Source: Mobula birostris | Taxonomy: Eukaryota | Direction: 5' to 3' | DNA: 64,000 nt | Assembly: GCF_030028105.1 (NCBI RefSeq) | Contig: NC_092379.1 | Location: forward strand, 74,325,006 to 74,389,005 | Part shown: positions 7,046-64,000 of the stretch, one piece after another | Layout of the letters: the number at the start of each line of letters is the position of its first letter | Position numbering within the stretch: the stretch's first letter is position 1 | The notes under the pieces: model-generated | Told to the model about the DNA's origin: nothing | Databases searched by the model: none | The model's input: the letters and a program-made list of their open reading frames with translations, nothing else | Position numbers and translations under genes: made by a program

Positions 7046-7736
7046 TAGTTTTCAAATGGGAGCTAAGTCAGTATCTGAAAGGGAAAAGAAAGTTACAGGA
7101 TTATAAGTAAAGAACAGGAGAGTGGAATGAGCTAAGTTGCTGTTGCATAGGATCAATATTGACTAGATTAGCTAAATGGGCTCCCGCCATGCTGTAACCA
7201 ATTTGTAAAGATTCCCAACAGAGCATTACCTGAAAGAGAATTGTGTTTGCTGCAAAATAGACCTAAAAGAAAATGCACCTTAAAATTTCCTGTGAGAAGC
7301 AGTTAGCTTTGATTCTTTTTGATTGTATGCATGATTACCATCAAGTTACTTTGGGAAATCTAATATAAGATCATCCTCCTTTATGTTCCTCTGGGCCCAT
7401 TTGTAAAATCAAGTCATGCCACAGCAATATACCACTGGGTTTGTGGTAGAACAACAATACTTTTACTTGCTCTGGGAGTTTAATTATTTCACTCGGTTTG
7501 GTTCCCATTATTCAGGATAATTAAAAATAATCTTATTTTTAATTTATTTTTTATCGGTCAACTCCATCCAAATTATTACCAAGTACTTGTAATATTTAAA
7601 TCCTTATAATGCTTTAAAATACCTCCTTAATCAGTTCATGGGCCTTGAATGTTCAATGTTGTTGAAGGATTTCTTTGTTTTTTCTCTTTTTTGATTGTAG
7701 CCACAGCTGATTTTTTAAAATTTCATTTTATAATAG

Positions 7737-14479: not shown

Positions 14480-14949
14480 TACAAAGCAAAGCCTAACATC
14501 ATGAATGGCAGTGGTGCTTCGCTCCCAGATGAGCTCACTGAGTTTTATGTGAATCCCCTTGTTATCTGATGACCCTGTAATCTCTGTCTCGGAGGCTGAT
14601 GTCAGATCATCTTTCAAAAGGGTGAACCCTTGTAAGGTGTCAGGCCCTGATGGCATACCTGGTAGGGCTCTGACAATCTCTGCCAACCAGCTGGCAGGAG
14701 TGTCCAAGCTCTCACTGCTGCAGTCGGAGGTTCCCACCTGCTTCAAAAGGGCAACAATCATACCAGTGCCCAAGAAGATCAGGATGAACTGTCTCAATGA
14801 CTGTCGTCCAGTGGCACTTATATTTTCTGTGATGAAGTACTTTGATCATGACTAGAGTCAACTCCTGCCGAAGCAAGGACCTTCACCTGCTGCAACATGC
14901 CTATTGTCATAATAGGTCTACAGCAGAAGTAATCTCACTGGTTCTCCTG

Positions 14950-42577: not shown

Positions 42578-45500
42578 AGAATAAGACCGTGAGGCATAGG
42601 AGCAGAATTAAGACATACGGCCCATCGAGTTTGCTCTGACATTCCATCATGGCTAATTTATTATCCCAACTCAACCACATTCTCCTGCCTTTTCCTTGTA
42701 AATAATCAAGAAGTTATCAAGCTCCACTTTAAATATACTCAATGTCTTGGCCTCCAGAGTCATCCATGACAATGAATTCCTTCGGTTCGCTACCCTCTGG
42801 CAAAAGATATTGCTACTCATCTGTTCTAAATGGATTTCCCCCTATTCTGAGGATGTGCCTTTTGGCCCTAGACTCACCCACTATAGAAAATATCTTCCCC
42901 ATACCCTGTCTGTCTAAGCCTTTCAAAATTCAATTGGTTTCAATGTGATTTCCCACCCTTCTCCCCGCCACCACCTTCTTCTTAACTCAAGCAGAGCCAT
43001 CAAACACTTCTTATACATTAATATTTTCAATCCTGAAAGCATTATGAAACTCCTCCAACGCTAACACAACTTTTCTTGGATAAAAGGTCCAAAAGTCTTC
43101 ACAATGCTCCAAATGTGACCTGATCAATGCCCTATAATGTCTCAACATTACATTCTTGTTCCTAAATTCTAATCCTGAAAATGAAAGATAATATTGCATT
43201 TGCCATCTTTATTTGATTCAAACTGCAAATTAACCTTTAGAGATTCATACACATGTACTCCCAAATCACTTACCACCTCTGATTTTTGAATTTACTCCGT
43301 TTAGAAAATAGTCTCCTTCTTTATTTCTTCTTCCAAAGTGCATGACCGTACACTTCCCTACACTATATTCCATCTGTTACTTCTTTACCTATTCTCCCAA
43401 TTTGTCCTTCTGCAAACTCTCTGCTTCCTCAATATCATCTGCCCCTCTCCCTACCTTCGTATTATCCACACAAACTTGACAGCAAGGCCTAAATTCTGTC
43501 ATCAAAATGGTTGATATATAATGTGAAAAGAAGCAATCCCAATACCGACCCCAGTAGAACACCACTAATCATAGGCAGCCAATCAGACTAGGCATCCTTT
43601 ATTCCCGCTCTTTGTTTCTTGCCAGTCCACCAATCTTCTATCCATGTTAGTATCTTTCCTGTTATACCATGGGCTCTTGTTAAGCAGCCTCATGTGCGAC
43701 ACCTTGTCAAAGGCCTTTTGAAAATCCAAGTAAACAACATCCAATGACAAATAAACTCTGCTTGGGCTTCCAGCCAGGTACAGGTATCAATCATAACCGA
43801 TGTTTTGATGACCAACTCTGCCACCTTCATCAGGGATGATGCTAGGGCATGTGTAGTCTGTTGGTACTTATACCCCCGTTGTCTGTCCCTTCTGATTAGT
43901 TAGTCCTCATCCAATCAGGTTTCCGCTGTCCCACCTTGTTTATAATTGAGTTCCAGTTGTTACTTAGAGTGAGATCTTCGTCTTTGTTAAATTCTTTTCA
44001 CTTAGTTTTATTTCAATGGCTTCCTTCTACAGGAAAAGAATTTTAACAAAGACAAAGATCTCACTGTAGGTAAGAATTAGATTTCCATTGTATATTGGTT
44101 TTTAAAAGCTTCCCTATCTTCTAACTTCCAACTAATTTTTGCTATATTATGTGTCTTCACTTTTGCTTTTATGCTGTCTTTAACTTCTTTTGTCAGCCAT
44201 GAATGCCTTATCCTCCTTTTAGAATACTTCTTCATTTTTGAGATGTATCTATCTTGCATCTTCATAATTGCCACCAGAAACTCCAGCCATTACTGCTCTG
44301 CCAACATCCCTGCTAGTATCCCTTTCCAATCAACTTTGGTCAGCCCATCTTTCATGCCTCTGTAATTTGCTTTACTCCATTGTAATACTGATCCATCTTA
44401 CTTTATCTTCTCCCTCTCAAAGTGCAGGGTAAATTCTTTCATATTATGATCACAGTTTCTAAGGGTTCCTTTCCCTTAAGTTCCTAAATTAAATCTGGTT
44501 CATCACACAACATCCAATACAGAATTGCCTTACCACTAGTGGGCTCATCCGCAAGCTGCTCTAAGAGTCGTCTTGTAGACATTCTACAAATTCCCTTGCA
44601 GGATCCAGCACCAACCTGATTTTCTCAATCTACTTGCATATTGAAATTCCTCTTGTAAAATTGTAAAATTGTCATCATTACATGCCTTTTCTATCTCCAA
44701 TTGTAATTTATATCCCACATCCTGGCTACTGTTTGGAGGCCTATATATAACTCCCATCAGGGTCTTTTTCCCCTTTCAGTTTCTTAACTCCACTGACAAG
44801 GATTCTACATTTTTGAATTGTATGTCACCTCTTCCTATGGATTTGATTTCATTTTCTTTCCAACAGAACCACCGACCCCCTCTGCCTACCTGCATGTCCT
44901 TTCAATAAAATGTGTATCCTTGGATGTTAAGCTCCCAACTATGATCTTCTTTCTGCATGACTTAGTACAGTAACACCTGCCAATCATCATATCTGCCAAT
45001 CTCTAATGGTGCTACAAGATCATTTGCCTTATTCAGTATACTGAGTGCATTCAAATTTAATACCTTCCATCCTGTGTTTGTCATCCTTTTCAATTTTGCC
45101 TTCATGTTACATTTCAGCTCACCTGCTAATTGCAATTATGCCATACCATCTGCCTCACAGTCTCACTATAGAATGAACCTACTTGTATGGCAACTGCCCC
45201 ATCCTCAGCCCTATCACTCTGGTTTCCATCCTCCTGCCAAATTAGTTTAAACCCTCCCAACAGCTCTAACAAACCTTCCAGCAAGGATATTGGTCTCCCT
45301 CAGGTTCAAGTGCAATCTATCCTATTTGTCATCATTTCCTCAGTGGAGATCCCCCTGTACCATTTCCTCAGCCACTCATTCCTCTGTACTGTCATCCTAT
45401 TCCTGTACTGACCAGCACATACTGGAAGTAATCCAGAGATTGCTACTTTGGAGGTCCTGTTCTTCAGCCTGTTCCCCAACTCCCTATAATAACTGCGCAG

Positions 45501-46100
45501 GACCTCTAATTCCCTTCCTTCCTATGTCATTAATGCCAGTGTGCACATTGACCTCTGGCTGCTCACCTTCTCCCTTGAGAATTTTCTGCAGCCGGACTAA
45601 GACATCCTGGACCCTAGGACCTGAGAGGCAACACACCATCCTGGTGTCTTTTTCGCAGCTACAGAATCTCCTGTCCATCCTTTTAACATTCAAGTTACCT
45701 ATCACCACAGCTTTGCCTGACTTTACCCTTCCCTGCGGAGCCTCAGAGATGGATACAATGCCACTGGCCTGGCTGCTGGTGCACTACCCTGAAAGATCAA
45801 CCCCCAGCAGTATTCAAAGGAGTATACTTGCTGCTGTGGGGAATGTCCACAGGGAACCCTATACACCTTTCTGGTTGTCACCCATCTGCTATTTTGAAAC
45901 CTGCACTCTGGATGTAACCACCTCAGTAAAAGTCTTGTCGATGAGGGTTACAGCCTCCTGGATGGTCCTGAGTGCATCCAGCTCCAGCTCCAGTTCCTTG
46001 ACCTTGTCAGTCAGGAGCAACAGGTGGATGCATTTCCTGTGGTGTAGTTGTCAGGGAGATCGTCAGGTACCTTGAAATCCCACATCTCACAGGAGGAGAA
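42578..46100 (-). mobile_element. CR1 LINE including ORF1 (SGNH/GDSL esterase-like), internally deleted
   Basis: 3' tail at ~42580. RT remnants at 42700-43745, EN remnants at 44080-45060. ORF1 RMVCCLSGPRVQDV...VHTGINDIGRK at 45484-45708 and a coiled-coil/zinc region at ~45950-46095. Confidence 0.88.
43750..44076 (-). mobile_element. Poseidon-type Penelope 3' end with hammerhead motif and inverted 5' tail
   Basis: Minus strand reads EAIEIKLSEK..(N)KDEDLTLSNNWNSI, then CC-CTGATGA-A-GGTGGC-AGAGTTG-GTCATC-AAAA-CATC-GG. 44038-44073 is an inverted copy of ~43960-43996. Confidence 0.72.
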
Positions 46101-46802
46101 TAAATACATTTAAAAACAGTTGATAGAAGAGAAAGAATAATATACGACTGAGGAAGGGGGAAGGGAATAAATAGAGAGCTATCAGAAATTGGGCGCGGTC
46201 ATTGACGGATTAAACAGCCTGTAAAATATTGCAGTTAGGTTGCTTGAAAATTAACAGCAGAAAGTAACTTTTTCCACAATAAATTGTTTGCAGCTGTTCT
46301 GTAGTGAAAGTTGTTTTGTAATAAGATCGTGCAGTGAGAAACTCCTTGCCAGTTGCTCTTGGCCTGGTTTAACAGCACTCTTCTGTGCTCCTCACACACT
46401 TCAGCACACAACATCTACATTGTTGAAACTGTGGCTATTTGCTAGCTTGTAGGCAGTTAGCCAAAATGGCTTTAAGGAATCAGAGGTTAAAGCAACATTG
46501 TTCAAACATTGACTGCATTAGTAGTGAAATTCATCTTGGGAGATAATACCCAGTAGCAACACATAACTCTGTTTTTGTGTGGGAACAAGGGTCATACTGA
46601 GGACTTCTATTTCCGGTCCCAGAACTGCCTTTATTAATATAAAATTGGTGGAATTGTATTTTCTTTATTGATGTTAAACAGAATTATTAAATCAGCAATT
46701 ACCTGCTCACCATTTTCCAGTTACCTTACATTTTTTAAAGGGAAGTCACGATTGCGTGCATTTGGCCAATATCACTCTAAAAAACCTTTCCTATCCATTT
46801 AC

Positions 46803-47673
46803 TGTCAACCTATCACAAAAATACCTAAATTAAGCAAATCATTGCATGAATCTTAATTAATTCAAAACTCTCACTTTATTGTCTCCAGAATAAATTATGT
46901 TGACCCTGGGACAATATAGGTCATGAATACTATTGTTCCTTTTGTACCAATACTCACACAGACCAACACTAAAACAGGGATCTCCTATTGGCCAAATGAT
47001 TGATCCTCCTTTTCTCTACCACTGGCATGGGATTGCAGGTGTGTGAAAGTCTTTCTTGTGATAACTAATCTCTGGAGTTCTTGGTGCCCTACATCTCAAG
47101 CCCCTCATTCCTTATGAATTCAAACTGTTGTGGTTTGATTTTTCATTGGCTCCAGCCTATTCAGCTTTTTGGCTCTGGTTCAAGCCAACATTAGTTCCTT
47201 GCTCTTTTCCTAAGTAAGAGCTCCAGTCTAAGGCAGAATCACTTTATTGCTATTCTCATAAATAACGATTTATCTATCATGTTTACTTTTTTTTTGTCAT
47301 CCCTGAATCACACTAGTTTAGCCAGATCAGGCAGTTGCTGGGCTCAGGTTACAGTCACAAACTGCCTTATTCATAAACCTGAATTTTATATTTTACCAAA
47401 GAACATCTCATAAACAACTTCTTATTTGAAAATGATCTCTACTTTAGCAGATTCTCAGTAGGGGGCTCATTGTGCCTACTTTTAATTGCTTTGATCCAGC
47501 TAGCCCTGAGCAAAAATAGTTCACAAAATGGAGGTTACAGAACAGTGTCACAAAATGGCTGCCTCCATTCTTTCATGGCAAGAGCAAAGCCACTTGTTTT
47601 GTCTACTTCCACTGTCCTTGACTTGTTCAAGTTTGATGGTTTCTTCCATGGTTTAATATCTTCACAGTCAATA
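46803..47673 (-). mobile_element. Solo LTR related to the proviral LTR at 59832-60642
   Basis: Collinear similarity at both ends (tcttaattaa..caaaactc.cactttattgt; gcctccattc..tacttccactgtcctt). Termini TGTCAAC...GTCAATA. Flanks TTAC/GTAC (degenerate TSD) inside an old CR1 tail. Confidence 0.8.
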
Positions 47674-49935
47674 GTACAAATGTATTTTAAATTTTGTAAT
47701 TATACCTGCCTCTACTACTTCCTCTGCCAGCTTGTTCCATATATCCACCACCTTCAGTGTGTAAAACTTTCAACTCAAATCCCCTTTGTCTCTTTCTCCT
47801 CTCACTTTAAACCTACAGCCCCCAGATTTATACTTCCCTACCCTGGGAAAAAGACTGTGACAATCCACCTTATCTATGTGCCTTGTGATTTTATAAACAT
47901 CTGTATGTGATTGTATGGTGATGAGAATTCCATGTATAATCTCATCAAAGTCTTGCACAGCTATAAAAAATCCTTTCCCAACTCCTGTACTCAGTTCCCT
48001 ATCTTATAAAGGCAAGCTTGCCATACACCATCTTCATCACTTCATCTACTAATGTCACCTCTTTCAGAAACTACTTGCTTGATTCTCTGAGCCTGCCTGT
48101 TCTACAACATACTACAGGATGCTGTCATTCACGGTATATATCCTGTCTGGTATAACTTCTCGAAACATGTCTGAGTTAACTTCCATCTGCTATACCTTGG
48201 CCCACTTCCTCAGTTAATCTAGATCCTGTTGCAGTCTCAGACAACCTCCTTCCCTGTCAACTGCTACATAATTTTGAAGTTGTCCACAAATTTACTAATT
48301 GTGCCACCTACATTCTCATCCAAAACATTAAAGCAAATGACAAATAACAGCGAATCCAGCACTGATTTCTACAACACACTACCATTCACATGCTCCAACC
48401 TGAAAATCAAGCCTCAAATCTGAAAAGCAATCTTACACTACCACCCTCTGCTTCTTATCTTGAAGCTAATGTTGTATCCAGTTGGCTAGCTCTCCCTGAA
48501 TTCCATGTGATCTAACTTCCCGGCCTACGTTATTAAAGACCTTGCTAAAGTCCACATAGATAACATCTACTGCCCTTCTCTTGCCATTTGCTTGGCCACT
48601 CTTCAAAAAAAGATTGTCCCCTTAAATGGCCATGCAAGCCAATCAATGTAAATATGTCATTTACTGTTATATAATACATGTGGACAATGTTCCAGTGATA
48701 GCAAAATAATGTCACTTCTCCTTGTAGAATGTGTCAGTAGCAGCCACTTCAGACAATCTAAACAACACAACCTTGCTTTATGTCTCAACTCAGAGAAATG
48801 CCACTGGAAATCTTGCAGGTTACGCTCAATGTTCATTGAAAATTTCCTCTGAGTATTGAGTAGCCAGCAACCATTTTCACTGATGTAAATATTCCAAGTA
48901 GGGAAGGGTCAACAATCAATCTCCTATTGGAAAAAATAGCTGGGTAAGTGAATAAGTATTATTGGGAGAGCATTTTGGGGTCAGTGACCATAATTCTATT
49001 AGTTCCAAAATAATTATGAAAAAAAGGTGGGACTGATCCATGAGTTCAAGACCAAAAATGGGATAAGGTTAATTTTGATGGCATTACAGTCATAGACAAC
49101 TACAGCACAAAAGCTAGCCCTTTGGCCCATCTAGTCCATGCTGAAGCTTTTTAAACTGCCTACTCCATAGCGCTCCACATCCCTACTATCCATGTACCGA
49201 TCTAAACTTATCTTAATGTTGAAATAGAGCTTGCACGGACCACGTGCTAACAGCACATTTCACACTCTCACGGCCCTCTGAATGATGAAGTTTCCCCTAA
49301 TGTTCTACTTAAACTTCTCATCTTTCACCCTTAACCCATAACCTCTGGTTGTCGTCCCACCCAACCTCAGTGGAAAAAAACCTGCTTACATTTACCCTAA
49401 CCCTCATAACTTTGTTCACCTATTCAGCAGAAATTCACAAAGATTGACAGTGAGATGCTGGTTGCTAGTAAAAAGACATGTGACACGCAGAGGGCTTTAA
49501 AAATGAGATGGAGAGAGTTCAGTGCCAGCATGTTCCCGATAGAGTGAACGGTAAGACTGACAGCAAGGGGAACTCTCAGCAAGGGATGTTGAGACTCTTG
49601 TAAGGAAAAAGAAAGAAGAATATAAAGGATGTGTAGCTACTTCAAGAGGAATCGGGATGAAAAAATATGGAGATACCTTTGGAAGACAAGGTAAATGATA
49701 ATCCTAGGAGATTATATAAGTGTATTAAGAGAGAATGGATAACCTAGGAGAGAATGGGTCATTTAAGAATTACGGTGACTGCCTTTGTGTGGAGCCACAG
49801 AAGATGAGTGAGGTCTTAAATTAATCAATTTAGTCAGTATTTACTGTGGAGAAGATTGTGGAAGCTAGGAAGTTCAGGGAAGAGGGGTGATGTTCTGAAA
49901 ATACCCATGTTACAAAAGGAGAGATGTTTTGAAGT
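47674..49935. mobile_element. Old CR1 fragments (minus 47.7-48.6 kb; plus 48.9-49.9 kb with a minus 3' end at ~49088-49420)
   Basis: IDKVDCHSLFPRVG..FKVRG (minus), EHFGVSDHNSISSKI (plus) and CR1 3'-UTR-like sequence. Confidence 0.65.
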
Positions 49936-52069
49936 ACATCTTGAACTACTCCAAATCCTGACAGATTTGGTTGTTTGCTTACCACTTAATTTGTAGTTCC
50001 AAAATGATGAACAACATAAACTCCCAGAATCCTTTTCTGACCAGAGCATTGAATTAGTGCTCATACCTCACTTACGTCTTTTTGGTCTTCTTCACAATTC
50101 CAGGTAGAAGTTACCACTGCTCTGTGATTTGAATTCCTGAAGTTTGAGGAGCTTTTTGACAGCTTCTTGTCAAATATCATCTCCATTAACAGTTCTACAC
50201 CCACTTTTGCTGGTTAATCTATCCACCCACTCTGCGAAAACTATATGGAACTTTTATTTAATAATGTCCTTTTTGACAATTACACTTAAAATGAAATGTT
50301 TAATGTAAGATTTCACAATTTAAAAAGCAATGGCATACTTAACAAAAATACAGAGGTAAAATATTGGAGATACAGTTTGTACAATCTCTCAGTTCACTTT
50401 CTCAGAAATAAAACCAGGGTACAATCTCTGGGCTAAACAACATTAAGCTAAATTAAATCTTCTTTTGCTTACTTAGCATTAGTAAAACTCTGTAGCCTGC
50501 AGTGCATATCTTGTTCTCTTAACAACAAGCCTCTTCTTATTTGCAAGGTTTTTAATACCTAAACTGATATATTCTGCAGACTGCATATTGAGTACATTTA
50601 CTCATATAATAATTTACAATAATCTGCTATTTAATTACTAGAGAATCCCTGATGATTCAGCTTCAAGTTTACCTGCTAATGTTTGCAGAGCACTCTTCCT
50701 GTTCACAGGGACACAGTTTTCCCATGCACCCTATCCAGTTACCAACACCCTGCTTCATTTGTTCTCTTTCCATATACCAGGGTCCGATTTTCCATGATCC
50801 TTTCTATTCACTGGGGCTCCAGTTACCATGTTCTCTTTCCACTCACTAGGGAAGCTGAATTCTGCGCTCACCTTCAATTCCCCTGGTTTATTGGAAAGTT
50901 TATTTTCATCCCATGTAACATCTAAGAGTTAAAAGAAATTACATTCAGTAACCATCTGGAAGATCCACCATTCCAGCATCACCAAAGTCTCAAGTCAGCG
51001 TAGAAATGGAACCTTTGGCCCACTACATCCATGCTGATCTTTTTGCCCATCAACACTAATACCATTTGGCTGCATTGGAGCCTTATCCATCTATGCCTTG
51101 TTTATCCAAATATACTTGCTTAAGTATAACAATTACATCTGATACATTGTGGGTGCTTGTATTATTCTGCTGAACACTGTAGGCATGTTGTATCGGCGCA
51201 GGAATATGTGGGGACATTTGTGGGCTGTCCCCAGCACACCCCTGAGTTGTATTGGCTGTTAGCACAAACAACACATTTAGCTGTTTCAATGTACATCTGA
51301 AAAGTAAATAAATCTGAATCTAAACTTTAATGAACATGTCACAATGGGATTAGAAATCACAATGACTTTCTATTTCACATACAGACCACTATCAATAGAT
51401 ACATATTCTATTTTTATTTTTATTTCCATTCTATTATTTGTGATACAGTAATAGGAACAAAATAATTTATGTGGTTAATCAATTCTTTTCCTAGTTATAA
51501 ATAACTTGTAATCTCCCTCTATAATATTATTTTATATGCCAATAAGTTGGTATCCAAAACAGAGCTGCTTTTTTTATTTTGTGAGAGAGCTTTACTATAG
51601 ACAGCAGTTAGGCTATGTTTGATCTTGCCCTTACTTTTATTGGTTTCACTTATTCACTGAGTTTTATTGTTAAAAGGGCAAGATGTAGCAGATTTGTGAT
51701 GCTAAGTAAATAATGGATGGCTTCATACAACGTGCTACTACCGTTGAGGCAATAGTCCAAGCATTGTTCTGCTACAGCAGAATTAATATGCAGCACTATT
51801 TAGAAACCATTCATTTTATGGCACCTAAGTGGGACCAGTCTCTGTGGAACTGCAGTTTGCCAATGATACTTGTCTTTGTGCATCACAGAGTAAGCATGAC
51901 CGGATAGGGAAATGGAAGGTTATGGGCATTGTGTCGGTAGAAGGGATTAGTTTAGTTGTCCATTTGATTAGTAATTTAATTGATTTGGTACAATCTTGTG
52001 GCTGAAGGGCCTGTTCCCATGTTGTACTGTTCTATGTTCTAATTTATAGCTGACAGAGGAAGAGAAAGA

Positions 52070-52320
52070 ATAACAAGTCTCAAACTTGCTACACAACCCA
52101 TGGTCAATTGGGTAGTGTTGACCCCTGCCCTCTTATGTGCTTCCGGGACTTATGAGGGACCTCAAGGCACTGGAGAGAAGGTTACCTCCGGAAAATCCAC
52201 CATTTCAACTGGAAGGATAAGTGAATCAACATCCATGACCCCAGCAATGAGGCCCTCGTTATACTCGGCCTGTAACGATGAGCAAGCCACATTGTTCACA
52301 TGCCCTGCATTCAACACACA
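52070..52320 (+). mobile_element. RTE-type LINE C-terminal remnant
   Basis: VLTPALLCASGT resembles VLPTLLYGSET; LRKIHHFNWKDK; R*ASHIVHMP resembles RWAGHIVRMP. Confidence 0.6.
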
Positions 52321-52861
52321 TTATTCTGGGCACAAACTCATGGAGCTGAAGAAGCCTGATACCAGATCCCTGGATTTATTTATAGGATGGTGAATTCAGA
52401 GCCTACAGACTCTGTGTCTCTGTACTTCATGTTCTTATTTTTGTTAAGAAGGTCTTTTTTAAGTGTGAATTTGTATTAACATTAAATCAGATATGACTGA
52501 CAAGGAAGCACATGCATAAACACAAGTTCTATAAAATATGGTTTTCACAGAGTAGGTGGACAGTTGGATAGATTAACCGGTAGTGGTGGGTGTAAACCTG
52601 TTAATGGAGGTGATTATTTAAAGTGAATTTGCCTAGAATCTCCAAAACCTTTGGATGATCAAAGCATAGACCCCTGAAATCTTACACCCAGCAATTGTGA
52701 GGAAAGGCAGGGTCCCAACACAACTCTAGCAGGAGAACTGAACCTACGCTCTGCCTTTCAGGCAGTGGTCCAAAATTCTGTGTGCTTTTCTGCTTGTCAC
52801 TTTGTAAAAACTAATTAAGTTATATTCTTATCAAAGTGTTGCAGAGTGACAATCAATAATG

Positions 52862-53291
52862 TGTTGTAACAAGAGCAAAGTTACCGGAGAGACACTGAAG
52901 TTTGTGGATACGGAAGTGTTTTATTCAACAAAAATGTGAAGCAGGTATCATACTGAGGCACTCTTGGAGGAAGAGACCTGCCCGATCCAATATTACATGA
53001 CATTTTATATGCTGAAGATCAAAGGTAACAGCAGGACAACTCAATAGTTACAATGTATGCACAATGCTTCCTTTGAATATTCAATCCCTCCTTTGCACCC
53101 ACACTCCAGACACCCAAAATGAATGTTAATCAGCATTGTTTGGTTTTCAATCAGCTGGCGTTCACAGCTCCAGGGAATTTGTTTAGGGATGCATTTTAAA
53201 TTTAATCTACAATCCATGTTCATGTCTGAAGAATGGCTGCGGTTAAACTTCATATTCTTATATGCCCTAACTCCAGAATATTGTTGTGACA
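52862..53291 (-). mobile_element. Solo LTR (430 bp)
   Basis: TGTTGTAACAA...TTGTTGTGACA termini. 4-bp TSD AATG (52858-61, 53292-95). Minus-strand TATAAAA (~53006) and AATAAA (~52922). Confidence 0.85.
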
Positions 53292-53295
53292 AATG

Positions 53296-55300
53296 CTTGT
53301 CAGGATCTTGACAACTAGTCTCTCAGACCCTCTCATCGGTGTACAGGAGGGATTGGGGTGGTCTCCATTTGAATGATGGCAATTCCCTATCTCGGTGGCA
53401 AACCCTTCAGGACTGTTCAGCTGATTACTGGCCCAATGTGTGTCATTTCTTTTCTTGCTCGGTCTGCCACACCATTGCAATTGTGGAAACTGATGTTGCT
53501 GCTGTAACTCAGATGCCATCCCATCTATTTTCCCCAAATGTTTTGCTATGCGACTAATCATCTGCCTTCAGCACGCAGCCTTCATTACAGAGTACAGATA
53601 CTGTTATACTTTAATATGGTGTTCACGGCTTTCTTTCGCGCTCTCTCGGTGAACTCTACTTTCATGTTTGCTGTGGGTCTGTGTCCATCAGCTCTGGTCG
53701 GATCTCATGCAGCCGGCTGGTGTTCTTCACTTGGTTCTCTGCAATTAAATGACACTGTTACTGGGAACACTTGATCTCTTGCTCCATCTGTGAGGATGAC
53801 AAGAAGGTGAGTCATTCGGTTTAACCTGTATCCATTGTTTCCACTGGCTGCCTCGCAGGAACTGCTCACCAACACATGGTCATTCATCCAGAGCACCGCC
53901 TGTGGTTCCATCCACCTGGGAGTGAAACCGGCTCCCTTACCATGACTTGGTCACATGGCTGTGGGAGGACTATCTTCTCTCTCTCTGGCTCTCTCCGATC
54001 TGCAATATATCACTGCTATTTGCTCGAGCCCTCAATGTGTTACCATAGTTACAGTGGTCCTTCACTTCTCCATGTAATCCTACTAATTTGGTGTTTGTAC
54101 TTTCTTTCACTGTTCTCCTCACACTGGTGTCTGCCCACTTGTTCCCTTTCTGCTCCTTACTGTCCCCTTTCTGGTGAGTCTTTACTTTCATCTCAGCTCC
54201 CTCCTCAGGCAGCTGCACTACTAACAACTCCTGGCTGTTCTTGGCCCAACCCTTGGGACCTCCTGACATGATTTCCTCACATCACCCTGTCTCTCCTCCA
54301 TGCTTGAGGCTGCTGTCTCTCTGTGCGCCATGTTAGCTGCTTTGCAGGTCATACATGTTCCCTGTCCCTGTCTTGTCCATGTTATTTCTCCTTTTCCTGA
54401 GTCTATCATTGCTCCTGCCTTGCTCAGTGTGTCTACCCCCAGGACAGAATCTTCATTGTTTGGGCACACCCAAAAATCTACAGGAATCTGCACTCCCTCA
54501 ATCTCGGGTACGTGGGGCTGACTTCTCTCTGCCCTCATTGTTTCATCTCCTGCACTGGTAATGTAAATCAGCTCTCCAGTCATGGGCAAAGGTAGATCAG
54601 ATATCGATACTGATGACCCTGTGTCCACTAACATTTCACATTGCTGGCCCTCAAATAAACCTCTTGTGTACCTCCGTGGATGACCATCCGAGGCTGCTGT
54701 CAGCCATTTGGCTAACTTCACCAGCTCTATAATCTGGTCAGCAGTCAAAATCAGAAAGAGAGGGCGCTGCTGGATTCTGCCTGCTTTGGTGAGTGATTTT
54801 CACACTTAACCCTCTTTTCAGGACACTAGTTCCAATCATGGCCTGAGAAGCTGCAGCTTGAACAAATTATCTCCTTTACTCTCCCACTTCAATTCCGGCA
54901 GCTCCTTGCTACATGCCCCAGATACCGGCACACATAGCAAGTCCTCTGTGACATCACAGCAGCTACATTCACTACAGCCACTGTACGACTTCTCTTTCCC
55001 CTCCTCTGGTCTATCTTACTGGCCCAGGATACTATTCCAGAGTAGGTCTATCCCACCGCTATCCCCAAATCTAAAACTTCCTGGTGGGTTGAGGTCAGGC
55101 CCTCCTTCAGTATCTTCAGGAAGACTGAATCATCCCTCCCTGGATTATCCAACTCTGAATACTCATACACTTGATATTTACATTCTGCACCATTCATGGC
55201 TGGCTCATCATCTCTCTGAACCACTGACATTATTGTTTCCCAGTTACTTTCACCTCCCCCCAGTCACTGCCTCACCTCCTATCTCCTTTTGATATTTTCC
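53296..55300 (-). pseudogene. Decayed LTR-retroelement/ERV internal block B: capsid C-terminus, two CCHC knuckles, protease, probable integrase tail and env N-terminus
   Basis: FLKILKEGLT (capsid-like). CYVCRYLGHVARSC at ~54897-54938 and CSSCSFSGHDWN*C at ~54824-54865. MLVDTGSSVS...VLGVDTL retropepsin in ORF 54221-54748. DQVMVR at ~53945. Confidence 0.8.
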
Positions 55301-55870
55301 AACACTATGAACCTAACTGTTCAATTAATAAATATTGGAAAAGCTCTGGAGGCTTATTCCACACCAGCCAGAAATTTGGAGTGATGTCAAGTTGAACAAC
55401 ACTTGCATAGGTCTCTTTCCCGGTACTAGAACAGTTTGTTTTCCTGTTTCCTCTAAAAAAAAGTCCTACTCCCTTTGTATTTTTCTGAACCTCATCTCAC
55501 AACGACGGACCAGTACAATTGGCAATGCAGTGGTTGTGGTATCAGTTGTTGACTACACCAAGGGGTAAGGTATATGCAGAAGATCTTGAGGCTCCCAAGC
55601 AACAGAGATTGAGTTACCTGTCGTACGTGCTAACCCATGATCTCATTTCTGATTTGCGTCCATGTCAGTATTATCATTACATTCACAGTGAAGTTGTACT
55701 TGGGTTCTAAGTCCTTTCTTTCTAAAGCAGCACCCCAAAAAGCACAGGACTTCTTAACATTATCCTAATTCTCCCATCATTTCCCCATATTACCATTATT
55801 CAATCATGATTATCAACAACCATCGGCCTCATTTCCTCTACAAAATCCCGTATCAATTCTTCATAAATTC

Positions 55871-56149
55871 GGTACGGCACAGTAGTGTGGTGGTTAGCAC
55901 AACACTTTACAGTACCAGTGACCTGGGTTCAATTCTCGCTGCTGCCAGTGTGGGTTTGTACATTCTCCCCATGACCACGTGGGTTTCCTCTGGATGCCCT
56001 GGCTTTCTCCCACTGTCCAAAGATATACCGGTTGGTAGTGCAAATTGTTCTGTGATTAGGCTAGGATTAAGTTGGGGGATTGCTGGGTGCAGTGGTTCGA
56101 AGGGCCAGAAGGCCCTAGTCTCCACTGATTTTGAATAATAATAAAAAAA
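55871..56149 (+). mobile_element. tRNA-derived SINE (HE1/V-SINE-like)
   Basis: A box TAGTGTGGTGG 55883-93, B box GGTTCAATTCT 55926-36. Core tttgtacattctccccatgacc..gtgggtttcctctggatgc...ctcccactgtccaaaga. A-rich tail. Confidence 0.85.
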
Positions 56150-56377
56150 TCGTACTACCATTTCACCTTCCTCATCCACATAATCTACTGCCGTGGCATC
56201 CGATGAAATTGAATGAATATTGTGAATAGTCTATCCATTGCCAACCTAATCTTCATACCTTGTATCTGTTCAAATGAATATTCAACAGACTTTATTGTAG
56301 GACACGTAACCTTCAATAGAGCTGTCAACTATCATGAGGCCACTCAGCAGTTGTATTCCAACACCAATTATTTCAAA

Positions 56378-57243
56378 CACAGAAGATTCAAAGCACATTT
56401 ATTATCAAAGATTGTATAAATTATACACTTCGAAATTTGTCTGCTTATAGACAGTCACAATGCAAGAAACTTGTCTAACCCAATTTTAAAAAAACACTGC
56501 ACAGACAGAGAGAGAGAAAAACACACTGTGCAAACAATAGAAGGGAGCCAACAGCATCCCGATCCAGACTGAGTCCCAGATCCGCTCCTGGAGCAGCCCG
56601 AGTAGGCCCACGTCAAGCCTCAGTCCCTGGTTTTCACACCAGTGGGGCAGAAATGCACAGCGGGCAGAAATGCACAGCAGCCAGATCACAGTCTTGGCGC
56701 TGCGGAGAAAGGAATGAACATTCACGGGAGAGCGAGCAAAATCAGCCGGACGGTTATCTTTTCTTCACATCTTCTGCCAGCCTGTTGTCGCCAGTACATT
56801 CTCCACTACACAATGGTGTGCTGGGGCAATGGTATCAACATGGGTGATGCCCACAGGCTAAATAATCTGATTAGAAAGGCTGGCTCTGTTACAGGAGTCA
56901 AACTGGACACACTGGAGGCTGTGGTAGAACAAAGGACCCTACAGAAAATCCTGGCAATTTTGGACAATGTTTCTCACCCTCTGCATGCCATCTTGGCTGA
57001 ACAGAGGAACATTGTTAGTAGATTAAAACAACTGTGCTGTTCCAAAGAGCTCATTCTTACCCTTGGATTTTAAGCTCTATAATTAGTCAGTCTCTAGTTG
57101 GGGAAGTGATGACCTACTTCTGTTAGACTGTTTGAGGTAACTTTTTTATTCTTTCCTAGTTCACGCTAACATTTGTATATCTGTGCACTTGTAATGCTAC
57201 TGTGACACTAATCTCCTTTGGGATCAATGAAGTATCTATCTAC
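56378..57243. mobile_element. Two abutting LINE 3' ends (minus 3' UTR ~56378-56755; plus Rex1 ~56762-57243)
   Basis: VCWGNGI..DAHRLNNLIRKAGSVTG..AILDNVSHPLH with a tcaatgaagtatctatct tail. gattcaaagcacatttattatca is a reversed tail. Confidence 0.75.
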
Positions 57244-57649
57244 CTCTGTACTCAACACTTGGGCTCCCAGTCTACCTGTGCCGTCGTTCACATTGTCCAA
57301 GCACCGAGTAGTTCCACGTTCTAGGACCTTGATCCCAGCGCCCCGATATGCCTGGGTTGCCCTGCCTGAAGCCATCTCGAACGCACCAGATCAGCTCAGC
57401 ACTTGGAGTGATCCAGCCTCATATCGGGGGTAGGTGGAGGGGCATTGAAACTCTGCCACATTGGCCGCTCTCTAAGTCGCTCCCTCCATCTCCGACAGTG
57501 ATACCAACTCCATCTGTGAACCTGGCCGCTTGAACAATTTGTGTGTCGCAATGTCCCAGCGTGGCTCATCTTCCGAATCAGCCTGGTCTCTGCTTGCCTC
57601 CTCACTGCCTGTGGCGATAGTTCACCACAACTTGCTTCATGAAAGATGC

Positions 57650-58480
57650 CATAAGGAACGTTTTTATTCGATTCTTATTGTCTTATGATATACCAGTAGA
57701 CTGTTGTACATCTTCGGTTGCACCATCTTAAACCAGAAACAACCAGAGTGTGTTTACATTACTTCAGTGTGTTTAGTCCATTGATAGATTATAATCTAAA
57801 CATTCTCATCTCCCTTGCCTCCTTCACAACACACGTTCAGTCTGCAGTCAAATGATGAATCAGTGGCAACTCAGTAACAACACAGTCCCACAAATATTGA
57901 TCTGTATCACTGCATTGGATTGTGAGGTTCTCCTTTGTTACCCTATTTACTGCTGGCTCAGACGATGTTTGTCCTCCAATAGCCAGATCCAAGATCAAGT
58001 TCCTTATTGTGAAATTGTGACTTTCCAAAGGCATTGTTTCCATCCCTTGGTATAACTTGTGTCTGCTATTGCTATATAACATGTCTGTCCCACCAGTGCA
58101 TATTCTAAGGGAGACTGATTACTCACAGGTGAAGTAGCCAATGAACAATATTCATGAATGCTAAAACTACAATGTGCAAGTTTCTGCTTTGTTATTTCTT
58201 CCAGGCAAAACCGCTGGTCTCCCTGTTGATGGCATCTTGATAGTCCTATTCCTTTCCCAGTACCATTCATAACAATAGCCTGTGTTGGTGGGTTACTTAA
58301 GAATCTCCAAGTATACTCATGATATTTGCTCACACTGTGAACCTTTTATCTCTGCTATCCCCTGTATAACATTCTCCTGTGTACAGTTAATAACAAATGA
58401 AGCATCCTTTGGAAAATCCTTGGCTGTAACCACCCAAACAGATATATCTCGAGTAAGTCACTGCCCCACTCACACTCACA
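57650..58480 (-). pseudogene. Decayed env-like (Cys-rich fusion-protein-like) segment of provirus A
   Basis: GIGLSRCHQQGDQRFC...HCSFSIHEYC...QTCYIAIADTSY..KQC / NFT...ELPLIHHL. N-glycosylation sequons (NGT, NQS, NFT, NLT). Downstream of gag on the same strand. Confidence 0.5.
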
Positions 58481-58499
58481 TGAGTGTGATCCCACAGAA

Positions 58500-59737
58500 C
58501 TGTAATCTTACCTTGGCCATTGTTACCCGAGGGCTGCTCAGTAACTGGACCGAAAAACAGACTAGTATTCCCTCTGGGATGCTTGATGTGAGTTTTCACC
58601 TTTATGACTGTGTTCTTTTATCCTCACATACAGTATATTCCACAGCTGGCTCGCCTCACATCACCCTGTGCAAGCGAGGAACCTCCTACAAAAAAAAAGG
58701 GTTTGCTTTGTTTGTGTCTGTGTTCTCGGGTACTGCTTTCTGATCTCTTACCTCCTCCCCCATTATTATTTTTAAATAAATAGTCCCTTGGGATCATTTG
58801 TTATCATATCCTGACACCCCTGTGGTTCTGCAGTACAATGAGGATTATCTGCAAGGAAGGTAGAAACTTTAATACCCTTTACAACTCCATTCCAACCCTG
58901 CAGTGACAAGGCTATAGCACTCAATTGAACCCTGTCAAAAAGGGCAGAATACCTTATTACAACTGGTTCTCCGGGATCTGGTGTCTTCCGAACTTATCAT
59001 GGGTGCCACTGGGGCAGTGGGTGTTAAAGGTTTCACCCTCTCTTGAAAAACTCCATAGGGAGGTGGGCCACTTCCCCAGTCAAATTTAAGATTATAGTGT
59101 ATCACTTCATATGCTAAGTTACCCCAACCTATATCAGCATCATCGTTAGTCCTCATCCCAAATTCACATTTTACTTCTCTCTGAGTTGAGAGTTAACTTT
59201 GCAGCTTTTTGATCTGTTTTAAACACCAGGTGTGATTAGCGCTGCCTTTCTTCTCAGCTGCTGAGTTCTGTACGATATTCACAGCAGTCTGTAAATACTG
59301 ATGATGACTTTTCCATTTCTCCACTCCTGTATTCACCTTTTTACACTCCTCTTCACTTTCCTCCTTTTCTCTTTTCAAATGTTCACACTAAGCCTGGAAA
59401 TGAATCATCTATCAAATTCGCATAGCCCTGCTCCTCAGAATTTCATTTACTTTCCTCTCTCTTTCTCTCTGTCTCTAACTCTTCCCTATACTTACACTTC
59501 TGTTTTGCTCTCTTCACTTCAATTAGATCTTCCAGTATAAATCCCATCATAGCAAATTTTAAATCTCTCATATTTTCTTTGATTCCTTTTCATTAACTGC
59601 TTTCCACAACGCATCCCTGGCCCTCCACTCTCAACTCCTCATAGTCAGGCTATTTTCTTAATATATAACTAAGAAGGTATTCTCTCCAATCCCCTCCGAA
59701 CTTCTTGTGTGTTCTTCTTGTCCTTCCCTCTTCCCAT
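58500..59737 (-). pseudogene. Decayed gag of provirus A
   Basis: ATG GGA (MGRGK) at 59737 just after the PBS. Coiled-coil-like EKEESEEECKK...NHTWCLKQIKKLQS. PPPY 59055-66, PTAP 59010-21, then capsid-like YSAPFDRVQLSAIA. Confidence 0.72.
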
Positions 59738-59806
59738 TTTAATATCCTAACCTAATGGGTGGTTCAACTCGAAACTAGGGTCCCAGGCCTCTATTCTTCT
59801 AGCTAT

Positions 59807-59826
59807 GAGTCCACCCAGGGACACCA
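59807..59826 (-). promoter_or_regulatory. Primer binding site, tRNA-Asn
   Basis: Minus strand TGGTGTCCCTGGGTGGACTC, 5 nt from the LTR end. Matches the complement of the vertebrate tRNA-Asn(GUU) 3' end (GAGCCCACCCAGGGACGCCA, from memory) at 18/20. Confidence 0.85.
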
Positions 59827-59831
59827 AAATA

Positions 59832-60642
59832 TGTTGACTATTCCTCGACAGAACTAGGTTAGGAAACTCACTATGCAACTCTTAATTAATCAAAACTCAC
59901 ACTTTATTGTGTCCACACACACAACAATGTTGACCCCAGGCAAACAACTTAGGACATGAATTCTCCTGTTCCCATTGTACCAATACTCACTCAGACTGCT
60001 TTTCCAATTTATAACATTAAAACAGGGGATCACCCGTAGGCCAGAAGATTGAGCCTTTCTTCTCCCAGACCCTGGCTTGGGAATTCTTTCTTGCGATGAT
60101 TAATCTCTGGAGTTGTAGTGACCTTTGCATTTGAAGCTCCTTATTTTAAATACTTCTTATCAGTTCAAATTATCCACCTCGTTCTTGTAGGCCTGAGGTC
60201 ATCTGACTCACCTATAATACCTCCCACTGGATATAGTCCAAGAATAACACAACTTCATGCCTTAGGTGACTTCTTTTATTTTCTTTGACTTTGGTTCAAA
60301 CCAGTCAAACCAGATCACTCAGGTACTGGGCCAAGATAACGAGACTACTTTGGCAAACCTGCCATTGTACAGTTTATCTGAGAATGATCTCTAGTTTAGC
60401 AGGTCAATAGCAGAAACTCCTTGTGTCCAGGTTCAATTGTTCTGGTTAGATTACCACAGAGCAAGAATCAATTCTCAAACAGTTCACAAGGTGGAACTTA
60501 CAGAGCAGCTTCAGAAAATGGCAGCCTCCATTCCTTCAACCATATAGTAAGAACAAAAACAATTGGTTTGTTTACTTCCACTGTCCTTCACCCATTCGAG
60601 TTCGATGTTTCCTTCCATATTTTAATTCCTCCATGGCCAACA
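59832..60642 (-). mobile_element. 5' LTR of provirus A (811 bp)
   Basis: TGTTG...CAACA termini, minus-strand AATAAA at ~59905, adjacent PBS. Right flank 60643-60745 is a minus-strand Rex1 RT piece (RIGSNTS...GCILSP). Confidence 0.85.
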
Positions 60643-60745
60643 GAGGGAGTAATGGTTGGGGCTGAGGATGCAGCCTAGTGAGGCAGCAATTTTGAGGGTA
60701 GTCATGGTGGAGGTGTTGCTGCCTATTCTTAGTCACTGCAGTCTG

Positions 60746-61524
60746 TTGGTTAAGAAGTAGTGCAGACTATTATCTAAATGGGGAGAAGGTTCAAACATCA
60801 GAGGTGCAGTGACTTAGGAGTTCTCATGCAAGACTCCCAGAAGGTTAATTGACAAGTTGAGTCTGTGGTAAAGAAGGCAAAAGGAATGTTGGCATTCATT
60901 TCAAGGGGAATATGAATATAAAAGCAAGGAGATAATGCTGAGCCTTTATAAAACATGAGTCAGGCCACACTTGCAGTATTTTCAACAGTTTTGGGCCCCA
61001 TATCTCAGAAAGGATGTATTGTCATTAGAGAGAGTCCAGAGGAGGTTCACAAGGATGATTCCTAGAATGAATGGGTTAACATACAAGGAGTGCTTGGCAG
61101 CTTTGGGTGTGCACTTACTGGAATTTAGAAGAATGTCGGGGGACCTCATTGAAATCCACCGAATGTTAAAAGGACTCAATAGGGTGGATGTAGAGAGGAT
61201 GTTTCCTCTGGTGGGGGTATCCAGAATTAGAGGGTACAGCCTCAGATTTGAGGGGTGACCTTTTAGAACTGAGGCAAGGAGGAATTTTTTTAGCTGGAGA
61301 GTAGTGAATCTGTGGATTGCTCTGCCACAGACTGCGGTGGAGGCCAAGTCCGTGGGTATATTTAAGGTGGAAGTTGATAGTTTCCTGATAGGTTAGGGAA
61401 TCAAAGGATATGGCGAGAAGGCAGATGTATGGGTGGAGTGGGATCTGGGATCAGCCATGCTGGAATGGTAGAGCAGGCTCAACGGGCTAAATGGCCTAAT
61501 TCTGCTCGTATGTCTTATGGTCTT
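60746..61524 (+). mobile_element. CR1 LINE 3' end
   Basis: QFWAPYLRKDVLSLERVQRRFTRMIP...GDLIE. Tail gtcttatggtctt. Confidence 0.92.
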
Positions 61525-61599
61525 TGTAGGTAAAAAATGAAACCAAATCATTAGAAAAAGGTGACATTGGGTCATAAAGTGTTGAATCATTCTGGGTAG

Positions 61600-64000
61600 A
61601 GCTGAGGAACTGCAAAGGTAAAAAGACCCTGATTGGAGTAATATACAGACCCTCAAAAAGTAGTAAAGATGTTGTCTACAAATTACAACGGGAGATACAA
61701 AATATTCCCAAAAGGGCAATGTTACAATAATCATGGGGTTTTCAATCTACAGGTAGATTGGGTAAATCAGGTTGGTGCTGGATCTTAAAAGGGGGAATTT
61801 CTTGAATGGCTACAAGATGGCTTTTTAGAACAGCTTGTGTTTGAGTCCACTAGGGAATCAACTATTCTGGATTGGGTGTTGTGCAATGAACTGGAATTGA
61901 TTAGAGAGCTTAAGGTAAAGGAATCCTTAGGGAAAATGATAGAATTCACTCTGCAATTTGAGAAGGAGAAGCTAAAGTCAGATGTATCAGCATTACAGTG
62001 GAGCACAGGGAATTACAGAGGTGTGACAGAGGAGGTGGAAACTGATTGGAAAAAAACACTGGCAAGGATGATGACTGAACAACAATGGTTGGAATTTGTG
62101 AGAGCACTTCAGAAGGCACAGGATATATTCACCCCAAAGAGGTAGAAGAATTCTGAAGGCAGGATGATACAACTGTGGCTGATAAGAGAAGTCAAAGCTA
62201 ACGTAAAAGCCAAAGAGAGGGCATATAATAGAGCAAAAATTATATTTAGAGGAATAAATTTGTAGAGAGGTTACAGACTGTTGCAAGAAACATAAGGTTG
62301 ATATAGTAGGTGATTTTAACTTTCCACATATTGAATGAGACTCACATACTGTTAAATGACTAGATGGGATAGAGATTGTCATATGTGTTCAGTAAAGTTT
62401 CCTTAATCTTAACATAGAAATCCCCAACAGAGTGTGCAATACTTGATCTCCTATTCGGGAATGAGACAGGGCAGGTGATAGAAGTTTGTGAAAGGGAACA
62501 CTGCATCTAGTGAACATAATGCCATTAGTTTCAAGCTAAATATGGAAATGTATAGTTCTGGTCCTTGAGTTGAGATTTTAAATTCGACTAAGGTCAACTT
62601 GGATGGTACCAGAAAAAATCTGTCAAGTCTGGATTGGGACAGGCTGTTTTCTGGCAAAGGTGTAGTTGGTAAGTGGGAGGTCTTCAAAAGAGAAATTTTG
62701 GGAGTGCAATGCTTGTATGTGCCTGTCAGAATAAAAGTTAAAGTAACAGGTTTAGGGAATGTTGGTTATCAAGAGCTATTGAGGCCCTGGTTAAGAAAAA
62801 AAGGTGTATAGCAGGTATAGGCAGGTAGGAACAAATGAGGTGCTCATGGAGAATAAGAAATGCAAGAGAATACTTATGAAAGAAATCAGGAGGACTAAAA
62901 GAAGGTATGGGGTTGCTCTAGCAGACAAGGCAAAGGAGAATCCTAAGGGATTCTACAGGTATGTTAAGAGCAGAAGGATTGCAGGGGACTAAACTGGCTC
63001 TCTGGAAGATCTCATTGGCAATCTATGCATCAAGCCTAAAGAAATGGTGGAGACCTTAAATTAACTTTTTTGTATCTGTATTTACTTGGGAGATGGACAC
63101 AGAGTTCATAGAAGTGAGGCAATGCAGCAGTGAGGTCATGGACCATATACAGATAACAGAGGAAGAGTTGTTTGCTGTCTTGAAGCAAATTAGGGTGAAC
63201 AAATAGCCTGGGCCTGAAGGGGTGTTCCTTCAGGACCTGTGGGAGACAAGTGCATAAATTTCTAATGTTGGTCCACTGTTTCTGAAAGGCTCTAAGTATA
63301 AACCAGGAACTTATAAGTGGATGAGCCTGACATTAGTAGTGGGAAAGATATTGGAAGGTATCCTAAGAGATCTGATATATGATTACTTGGAGAGATGGAT
63401 TGATTAGGGATGGTCGGCATGGAAAATCATGTCTAACCAATTTTATAGAGTTTTTTGTGGATGTTATTAGGGAAGCTGATGAAGGCAAGGTAGTGGATGT
63501 TGTCTACATGGATTTCAGCAAGTCATTTGACAAGGTCCCGCATGGGAGGTTGGTCAAGAAAGTTCAGTCGCTTGGCATTCAAGAAGAGGTAGTAAATTGG
63601 ATTAGGCATTGGTTTTGCAGGAGAAGCCGGAGAGTAGTAGTAGATGGTTGCCTCTCTGACTGAAAGCCTGTGACTAGTGGAGTGCCACAGGGATCGGTGC
63701 TGGTCTGATGTTTGTCTTTTGTATCAGTGACCGAGATCATATTGTTGTTAGCTGGATCAGCAAATTTGCAGAAGACACCAAGACTGGGGGTGTAGTGGAT
63801 AACGATGAAGACTATCAAAGCTTGTAATGGGATCTGTATCAACAGGAAATATGGGCAGAAAAATGGCAGATTTAATTTAATGCAGGAAAACATGAGGTGT
63901 TGCTCTTTGGAAGGACCAACCAGCACAGGTCTTATAAAGTGAGCCACTAGGACACAGAGTTTAGAAGAAGAAAGGGATCTGGGAATCCAGGTCCACAGTT
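61600..64000 (+). mobile_element. Two abutting CR1 ORF2 fragments (junction ~62243), running off the window
   Basis: ILDWVLCNE..MIEFTLQFE; then IVGDFNFP, KENPKGFYRYVKSRR, VDVVYMDFSKSFDKVPH, GVPQGSVL. Confidence 0.9.

Follow-up and report, generated by a model that had tools for sequence, protein, structure and literature searches.

The question raised by this locus is whether the genome of Mobula birostris holds a lokiretrovirus. The window, by which we mean the whole stretch of 64,000 nucleotides analysed (assembly GCF_030028105.1, contig NC_092379.1, positions 74,325,006 to 74,389,005), carries on its minus strand a decayed endogenous retrovirus (ERV), which an initial annotation read as a Loki-like provirus that had lost pol. 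It is instead highly probable that the locus is a defunct provirus with internal deletions and a chimeric make-up, derived from two subfamilies, A and B, of one ERV family, that its relatives are canonical retroviruses, likely of the grade of snakehead retrovirus (SnRV; class III, clade Huo), and that the envelope protein (Env) of the family is a predicted F-type fusogen. The locus itself is ordinary, and its significance lies in the F-type Env of the family and in a candidate captured copy on contig C3.

Placement of the family by reverse transcriptase

Pol is lost in the window copy, as first annotated; the reverse transcriptase (RT) is deleted and only a fragment from the tether/RNase H boundary is left. 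RT was therefore taken from linked family copies. The tree held 57 rows, of which 45 were chosen from 149 RT rows to span the groups and 12 were foamy, epsilon, gamma, delta and other viral sequences. P0076 served as the reference for SnRV (whole genome L145), and P0093 and P0095 were among the six Loki-type rows.

Seven family copies were placed inside the canonical retroviruses with a support of 100/99, together with coelacanth and frog Pols named 'NYNRIN-like', and an earlier tree agrees. The Loki-type clade was separate (100/99) and recovered as sister to the canonical retroviruses. The family was also outside the Gypsy clade (100/100) and outside the gamma/epsilon, delta and foamy clades. 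Approximately unbiased (AU) tests rejected a grouping with the Loki-type rows, both for the family alone (p=9e-64) and for the family with its near relatives (p=0.0005), and likewise with epsilon (p=4e-9) and foamy (p=0.014) sequences, while a grouping with SnRV was not rejected (p=0.285). Tree and tests thus uphold the first reading of the element as an enveloped-type retrovirus rather than a Gypsy element or gamma/epsilon ERV, and contradict its assignment to the lokiretroviruses.

SnRV showed the highest RT identity among the named viruses compared for 7/7 family copies, 36-48%, as compared to 22-39% for the Loki-type rows, 25-40% for foamy, 27-38% for epsilon and 28-42% for gamma sequences. 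The family motif LDISNGFWS was found in the SnRV row of the accessible supplement of PMC7947760, in the 2 of 3 occurrences shown, and an Asn-type primer start, in the 2 of 3 occurrences shown in that supplement, was located inside LTR (long terminal repeat) text and not at a primer site. According to the available part of PMC11089739, most RTs of cartilaginous-fish ERVs belong to clade III; the available parts of PMC9040795, PMC12440569, PMC4977317 and PMC8922424 served as general background. The RT identity, the homology of the Envs described below and the AU test that did not reject the grouping are the reasons for the label SnRV-like.

The envelope protein and its predicted fold

The env frame of the window has 150 genomic matches, one of them in an open frame longer than 400 amino acids (741; the next is 384). 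The intact Env of the family has a signal peptide, an RRRR site, a glycine-rich hydrophobic fusion peptide, heptads, a Cys-rich region and a transmembrane segment; furin cleavage is an established step for retroviral Envs. It contains no CX6CC, CXXC or LQNR-type motif, in agreement with the absence of a CKS-17/CX6CC motif of the gamma/epsilon type noticed at the outset.

A profile of the Env found 37 homologues. Naming covered 18 of these, as well as the SnRV Pol and two RT rows, and the 18 were from sharks, rays and a frog, with no teleost protein among them. When the profile was used in a sequence search of the PDB, the matches were coiled-coil noise only. The evidence for the fold comes from an AlphaFold model built on 40 alignment rows (pLDDT 54, pTM 0.39). 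In a Foldseek search of the PDB all the listed top rows were F proteins of respiratory syncytial virus, human metapneumovirus and paramyxoviruses, with a best E of 2.4e-12, and VIA-align gave Z 8.5-9.7 over 283-317 residues for nine F chains and a foamy Env. The matches in BFVD were lispivirus G, baculovirus F, walleye epsilonretrovirus Env and feline foamy Env, and the first matches in the Atlas carry PF00523. The family Env as a class I fusogen of the paramyxo/pneumovirus F type is thus well supported as a prediction, and the model agrees with the F-protein-like Env proposed initially.

The Env profile could also be aligned to the SnRV Env by HHalign with a probability of 92% and an E of 6.6e-7, over 394 columns at ~16% identity. 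The alignment spans the cleavage site, the fusion peptide and the Cys motif that is found in the window. The same type of fusogen is likely used by this SnRV-like member of the canonical retroviruses and, by homology, by SnRV itself. In the literature within reach, which leaves out most subscription papers, there was no report of an F-type SnRV Env.

Weighing of the explanations

Several observations weigh against an SnRV-like retrovirus with an F-type Env. The window copy is placed by the homology of its LTR, gag and env to RT-bearing relatives. The RT tree left out ERV-L, class II alpha/beta/lenti and fish-foamy rows and used one model, LG+G4, and the Loki and SnRV reference rows were labelled by eye against alignment rows in the accessible supplement of PMC7947760. 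A clade of the family and SnRV is absent from the free tree, where the backbone support is 83-88, which makes 'SnRV-like, clade Huo' the most fitting label rather than a demonstrated clade. No gag similarity between the family and SnRV was found by tblastn, and hmmsearch against the SnRV Env was weak (E 0.033, at the top of 200 shuffles). PF00523 gave no Pfam match in the env frames of the window, in the intact Env, in the aligned members (0/11) or in the homologues (0/37). The quality of the Env model is modest, with TM values of 0.2-0.4 added to its low pLDDT and pTM, and the Env comparison set was without any Loki Env.

A true lokiretrovirus without pol would explain the F-like Env and the coiled-coil Gag stub, as well as the dual RNase H of close relatives and the automatic naming of relatives as NYNRIN-like. 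It would be the first in a cartilaginous fish, and it would have been new, since in the accessible part of the PMC7947760 survey 0/6 chondrichthyan genomes were positive. Yet SnRV or foamy viruses have each of these traits as well. The two traits from which Loki was inferred are shared with SnRV, whose Env aligns to that of the family and whose Gag has a heptad-rich region, judged by eye. The RT motif of the family is of the LPQG type and not the PFG.NSPA.FNI motif of the Loki rows seen. With the AU rejection this explanation falls on the RT evidence, provided that the Loki-type rows are correctly labelled, and we regard it as very improbable.

It is unlikely that an SnRV-like gag-pol recombined with an env whose source was a lokiretrovirus or, in a direct transfer, a mononegavirus, though such an origin would fit the low identity to the SnRV Env (~16%), the mononegaviral nature of the best structural matches and the free recombination within the family. 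The Env is colinear with that of SnRV along the whole alignment, and the host range of the named profile matches, which includes no teleost, also speaks against it. F-type env genes occur in Ty3/gypsy elements, according to the available part of PMC13524379, and the walleye Envs in BFVD could point to an epsilon-type ERV. Both an epsilon-type ERV and a retrotransposon of the Gypsy/errantivirus type that carries an F-like env are already refuted by the RT tree and the epsilon AU test, and for Gypsy also by the second RNase H of the relatives, which makes this explanation barely credible. An SnRV-like canonical retrovirus with an F-type Env is thus the reading that we use below.

Structure of the locus

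The ERV was first delimited to 57650..60642, but it extends past 57650 to 55284, with a second env remnant at 56380-55284. The features of the window are as follows.

59832..60642, minus strand: unpaired 5' LTR of 811 bp with TG..CA ends, subfamily A, delimited by homology to dispersed copies
59807..59826, minus strand: primer binding site, complement of tRNA-Asn(GTT), 18/20, matched to the tRNA of the own genome and present in subfamily B copies also (up to 17/18)
58912..59737, minus strand: 5' third of gag with MG start and coiled-coil region, stops and frameshifts; capsid and CCHC knuckle deleted
59055..59066, minus strand: PPPY motif, unstable within the family (3/28 copies; PPPH in 7)
59010..59021, minus strand: PTAP motif, likely late domain (8/28, the commonest state; also in a subfamily B copy)
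~58634..58911, minus strand: pol remnant of subfamily B, from the tether/RNase H boundary up to the RNase H start
58350..58583, minus strand: 5' piece of env, subfamily B; the deletion joining it to the next piece is common to other loci
57737..58347, minus strand: 3' piece of env, subfamily B, the Cys-rich F1-like part; its homology to the intact Env (733 aa) sets in at residue 463
56381..57736, strand not assigned: unrelated repeat DNA of 1.36 kb, a later insertion splitting the ERV
55284..56380, minus strand: 5' part of env, subfamily A, residues 1 to ~270 and then a few codons from 464
~56146-55870: SINE-like (short interspersed element) insert inside the subfamily A env part
52862..55279, minus strand: 3' part of another LTR element, non-autonomous and high in copy number, with gag-pro remnant and LTR at ~53281-52862
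46803..47673, minus strand: older solo LTR of the same family, 67% identical to the 5' LTR, with its own 4-bp duplication (3/4)

The Cys-rich glycosylated segment described at 57650-58480 does hold env material, but it is a patchwork of a pol piece and two env pieces, and 57736-57650 is outside env. The 3' env piece is 43% identical to residues 463-567 of the intact Env and has 4 sequons across two frames, without fusion peptide or transmembrane segment. Down to 55284 the ERV lacks capsid, RT, fusion peptide and 3' LTR. The absence of the 3' LTR is explained by a fusion of the ERV at 55279, through the deletion that took away its 3' end, to the inside of another LTR family, for which there are 2254 candidates genome-wide with LTRs of ~420 bp, and whose protease is most like P0077/P0079 of another class III-type lineage. 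The window copy is unable to make capsid, RT or a fusogenic Env; it is an inert fossil that encodes nothing functional.

The LTR at 47673-46803 was ruled out as the partner of the 5' LTR by its own target duplication and the 67% identity, and the gag-pro at 55279-53300, which belongs to the other LTR family, was ruled out as the ERV's own pol. An immunoglobulin-like reading of 58118-57840 was rejected, as this part aligns to Env 3' of the Cys-rich domain. No Rfam match was found in 44000-64000 of the window.

Elsewhere in the window, 5439-7047 and 12971-14484 form a 1.5-kb inverted repeat with 95% identity, ~6 kb apart and with internal 216-bp repeats, possibly an inverted-terminal-repeat element or a recent inversion-duplication. 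Putative host exons may be present at 52043-52393 (+) and 50680-50880 (+).

Long terminal repeats and primer site

The 811-bp LTR with TG..CA ends, recognized from the start, was borne out by its limits (1-811), which recur in dispersed genome copies at 73-87% identity; the genome search gave 43 matches from the best 40 scored of 2616 candidates. The target duplications of the family are 4 bp, read by eye as exact in L040, L041 and the two-LTR copy L033, as 3/4 in L039, L042, L046 and L027, and as ambiguous in L038 and L044. LTR pairs in the family differ by a Kimura two-parameter distance of 0.12-0.24.

Retroviral reverse transcription is primed by a host tRNA. The primer site of the window (59826-59807) starts 5 nt past the LTR, and the proposed 18/20 match (16/18) to tRNA-Asn stood when aligned to the 3' end of the tRNA-Asn(GTT) gene of the same genome. 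Its complement had 106 exact genome matches, as compared to 0 for the reversed control, and ARAGORN called 8 of 10 such loci as tRNA-Asn(GTT) and 1 as Lys(TTT), with no call for the last. Seven other distinct primer sites from both subfamilies matched at 13-17/18, with more decayed ones falling below the print threshold. A large amplified array of tRNA genes lies on contig C33 (19.2-37.6 Mb), with ~95 listed tRNA-Asn matches at a fairly regular spacing, some beside tRNA-Met. On C5, one copy (L100) combines a tRNA-Asn body with a Lys(TTT) anticodon.

Gag and late domains

The MG-initiated Gag of the first reading was confirmed by an ATG-GG start at 59737, and the MG start is intact in 11/19 distinct family alignments. 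The coiled-coil region corresponds to the frame 59387-59196, which is coiled-coil-like with weak coiled-coil Pfam matches only. Full-length family copies have a CCHC-like knuckle, as in SnRV Gag.

The two motifs taken initially as two late domains are both present, PPPY at 59066-59055 and PTAP at 59021-59010, in one shared 85-aa frame. We surveyed 30 gag loci, of which 28 were readable at each motif. PTAP was the commonest state (8/28), while six near-identical copies on C6 read PTTP, and it was present in the subfamily B copy examined. PPPY was found in 3/28 as compared to 7 with PPPH, the fourth codon being Tyr in 7 and His in 9. The frequency of PTAP and its presence in subfamily B therefore make it likely that it is a late domain of the family, acting by the known retroviral budding route through TSG101, whereas PPPY as a second late domain is unproven.

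Full-length relatives and the deleted forms

Relatives with two LTRs, L027 (~9.2 kb), L028, L021 and L082/83, carry gag, pro, RT, tether, RNase H, integrase and env in that order. Subfamilies A and B are ~45% identical in Env. In the window copy, a type A LTR and 5' third of gag are followed by type B pieces of pol and env and then by a type A env, which shows that the family recombines. Its gag/pol junction (A to B) was found in 0/33 other loci. The two B junctions were each spanned in 7/33 loci (6 distinct places, as L006 lies in L029), the A env junction (~270 joined to 464) in 2/33, L027 and L028, and L033 has the same B-to-A join as the window without the 1.36-kb insertion.

The A and B env deletions, which are independent (window 55310 and 58347; L027, L028, L002-L009) end no more than ~10 nt apart, at codon 463-464, and both remove the cleavage site, the fusion peptide and the first heptad (HR1). 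Splicing was ruled out as their cause, as there is no GT donor and short microhomologies fit. The same junctions occur at several loci, and the deleted forms therefore spread after the deletion, likely by trans-mobilisation with helper proviruses.

It is likely that the ancestral virus was primed by tRNA-Asn, budded through PTAP and used a furin-cleaved Env for cell entry. Once the family was endogenous, RT and the fusion-peptide/HR1 part of env were removed by deletions at short microhomologies, and helper proviruses likely copied the deleted forms in trans. The window copy then lost its capsid region, gained two insertions and lost its 3' end.

On the same contig, 3 Mb away, one copy (L002/L031, C12:71.43 Mb) is 89-99% identical to window 58634-57894, as compared to a family norm of 75-80%, a similarity that local duplication or gene conversion would explain. 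Contigs C17 and C6 carry clustered env or gag fragments, many of them nearly identical, as expected if old pieces of provirus had been amplified segmentally.

A candidate captured env gene

One provirus of the same LTR family, on contig C3 (~127.2395-127.2512 Mb), has broken gag and pol and an open env.

L082:3528-5750 (minus strand) with L083:5127-5154: open env of 733/745 aa, at ~127,239,500-127,241,750 of C3

The LTR pieces of this provirus are 79% alike over 333 nt. Its env shares 92-93% identity with proteins of Hypanus sabinus and Hemitrygon akajei (full-length and orthologue-like, 745 aa), eight coded organisms hold part of its DNA, and it is open across three ray genomes while the provirus decays. 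Among the matches listed, the 3' env differs at 14/480 positions in one run as compared to 58/726 in the pol remnant (p=0.0003), and in another run at 11/451 as compared to 40/805 (p=0.036). The insertions and deletions listed, 12 of 32 in one comparison and 7 in another, are all outside the open reading frame. One run, guessed to be RNA, extends over the env but not over the pol remnant and ends 11 nt ahead of the ATG, at a canonical pyrimidine-CAG acceptor. A short exon ~1.6 kb upstream of the 5' LTR, within another repeat, ends in a GTATGT donor, likewise canonical, and explains the additional N-terminal residues seen in P0016 and P0017.

Other observations argue against a capture. In the 5' env the divergence is close to that of the flanks (5-6.5%; 85-88% protein identity), ten listed differences comprise 4 synonymous and 6 non-synonymous ones, too few to inform, and the RNA status of the run over the env is a guess; the env has no RNA holder on record. 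On balance we lean towards the C3 env being a host-captured, spliced gene for a predicted F-type fusogen or receptor-blocking factor, which, judging from the sequences, would have been kept intact across myliobatiform rays as gag, pol and LTRs decayed. As a captured envelope gene of viviparous rays it is a concrete candidate that lends itself to testing, and is new here; the literature within reach, from which most subscription papers and one key co-option survey were missing, held no report of a captured env in rays.

Other Env homologues were also seen. In Hypanus sabinus the contig with the intact env holds a further copy that is truncated (P0018, 319 aa). P0027 (739 aa), from the bamboo shark Chiloscyllium, is a long open homologue, and the P0055 cluster is an expanded set of 32 members in the frog Discoglossus; P0027 and the P0055 cluster are further capture candidates or young proviruses.

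Implications

The F-type Env fold is not specific to lokiretroviruses, and an F-like Env together with a coiled-coil Gag is not diagnostic for them. The ray family bears on a question left open in the available part of PMC7947760, whether the retroviral ancestor had an F-type Env. If the readings given here are true, the F-type Env would be the general state of aquatic class III retroviruses and not a Loki hallmark, and C3 would hold a captured env of a non-gamma, paramyxovirus-F architecture in a live-bearing cartilaginous fish.

Comparison with known systems

Captured env genes, such as the syncytins and the teleost envs in the available part of PMC12813294, resemble the C3 copy only, being a single open env in a decayed provirus common to related hosts. 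The C3 env differs in that it is predicted to be F-type and not gamma-type, is found in rays and is only a candidate; a term search of the accessible text of PMC12813294 gave no mention of sharks or rays. Foamy virus Env (PDB 8rm0; PMC11468914, in the part available) has an F-related fold like that of the ray Env, with Z 8.7 and a root-mean-square deviation of 5.1 over 304 residues, but the ray RT is not foamy (p=0.014) and the ray Gag has a CCHC knuckle. A term search of the accessible text of PMC11468914 found neither SnRV nor Loki mentioned. Lineage I of CmiERV in the elephant shark is, in the available part of Han 2015 (PMC4422223), a chondrichthyan ERV reported to cluster with SnRV. It is compared by description only, and its Env fold, primer and non-autonomous derivatives are undescribed in that part.

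The lokiretroviruses of Wang and Han (PMC7947760, available part) share with the family gag-pol-env, tether and RNase H, an RXKR-type cleavage site and an F-like Env, and Bik-1 (bioRxiv 2024.03.25.586437, available part) shares a coiled-coil Gag, though a glycine-rich patch is described for Bik-1 Gag where the ray family has a CCHC knuckle. The signal peptide, RXKR site, fusion peptide, coiled coil and transmembrane segment of Loki Envs are all found in the intact family Env and deleted in the window copy; the tether and second RNase H of the relatives are common to all retroviruses. The differences are that the ray RT is outside the Loki clade, with AU rejection, and that PF00523 is not matched by sequence in the ray Env. 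No smc gene was seen in the decayed ray copies, a gene that is optional in lokiretroviruses.

SnRV differs from the ray family in its primer site, which is tRNA-Arg and not tRNA-Asn, and in the lack of PTAP and PPxY in its Gag, where the ray family has PTAP. The ray Env is shorter, 733-745 as compared to ~1130 aa, and the tree has no exclusive clade with SnRV. Both have a heptad-rich Gag region, judged by eye for SnRV, whose publication reportedly described a coiled-coil Gag. The likeness extends to the dual RNase H, the CCHC knuckle in Gag and the colinear Env, and to the RT, where L145, matched to the SnRV row in the accessible supplement of PMC7947760, is at 36-48% the closest of the named viruses.

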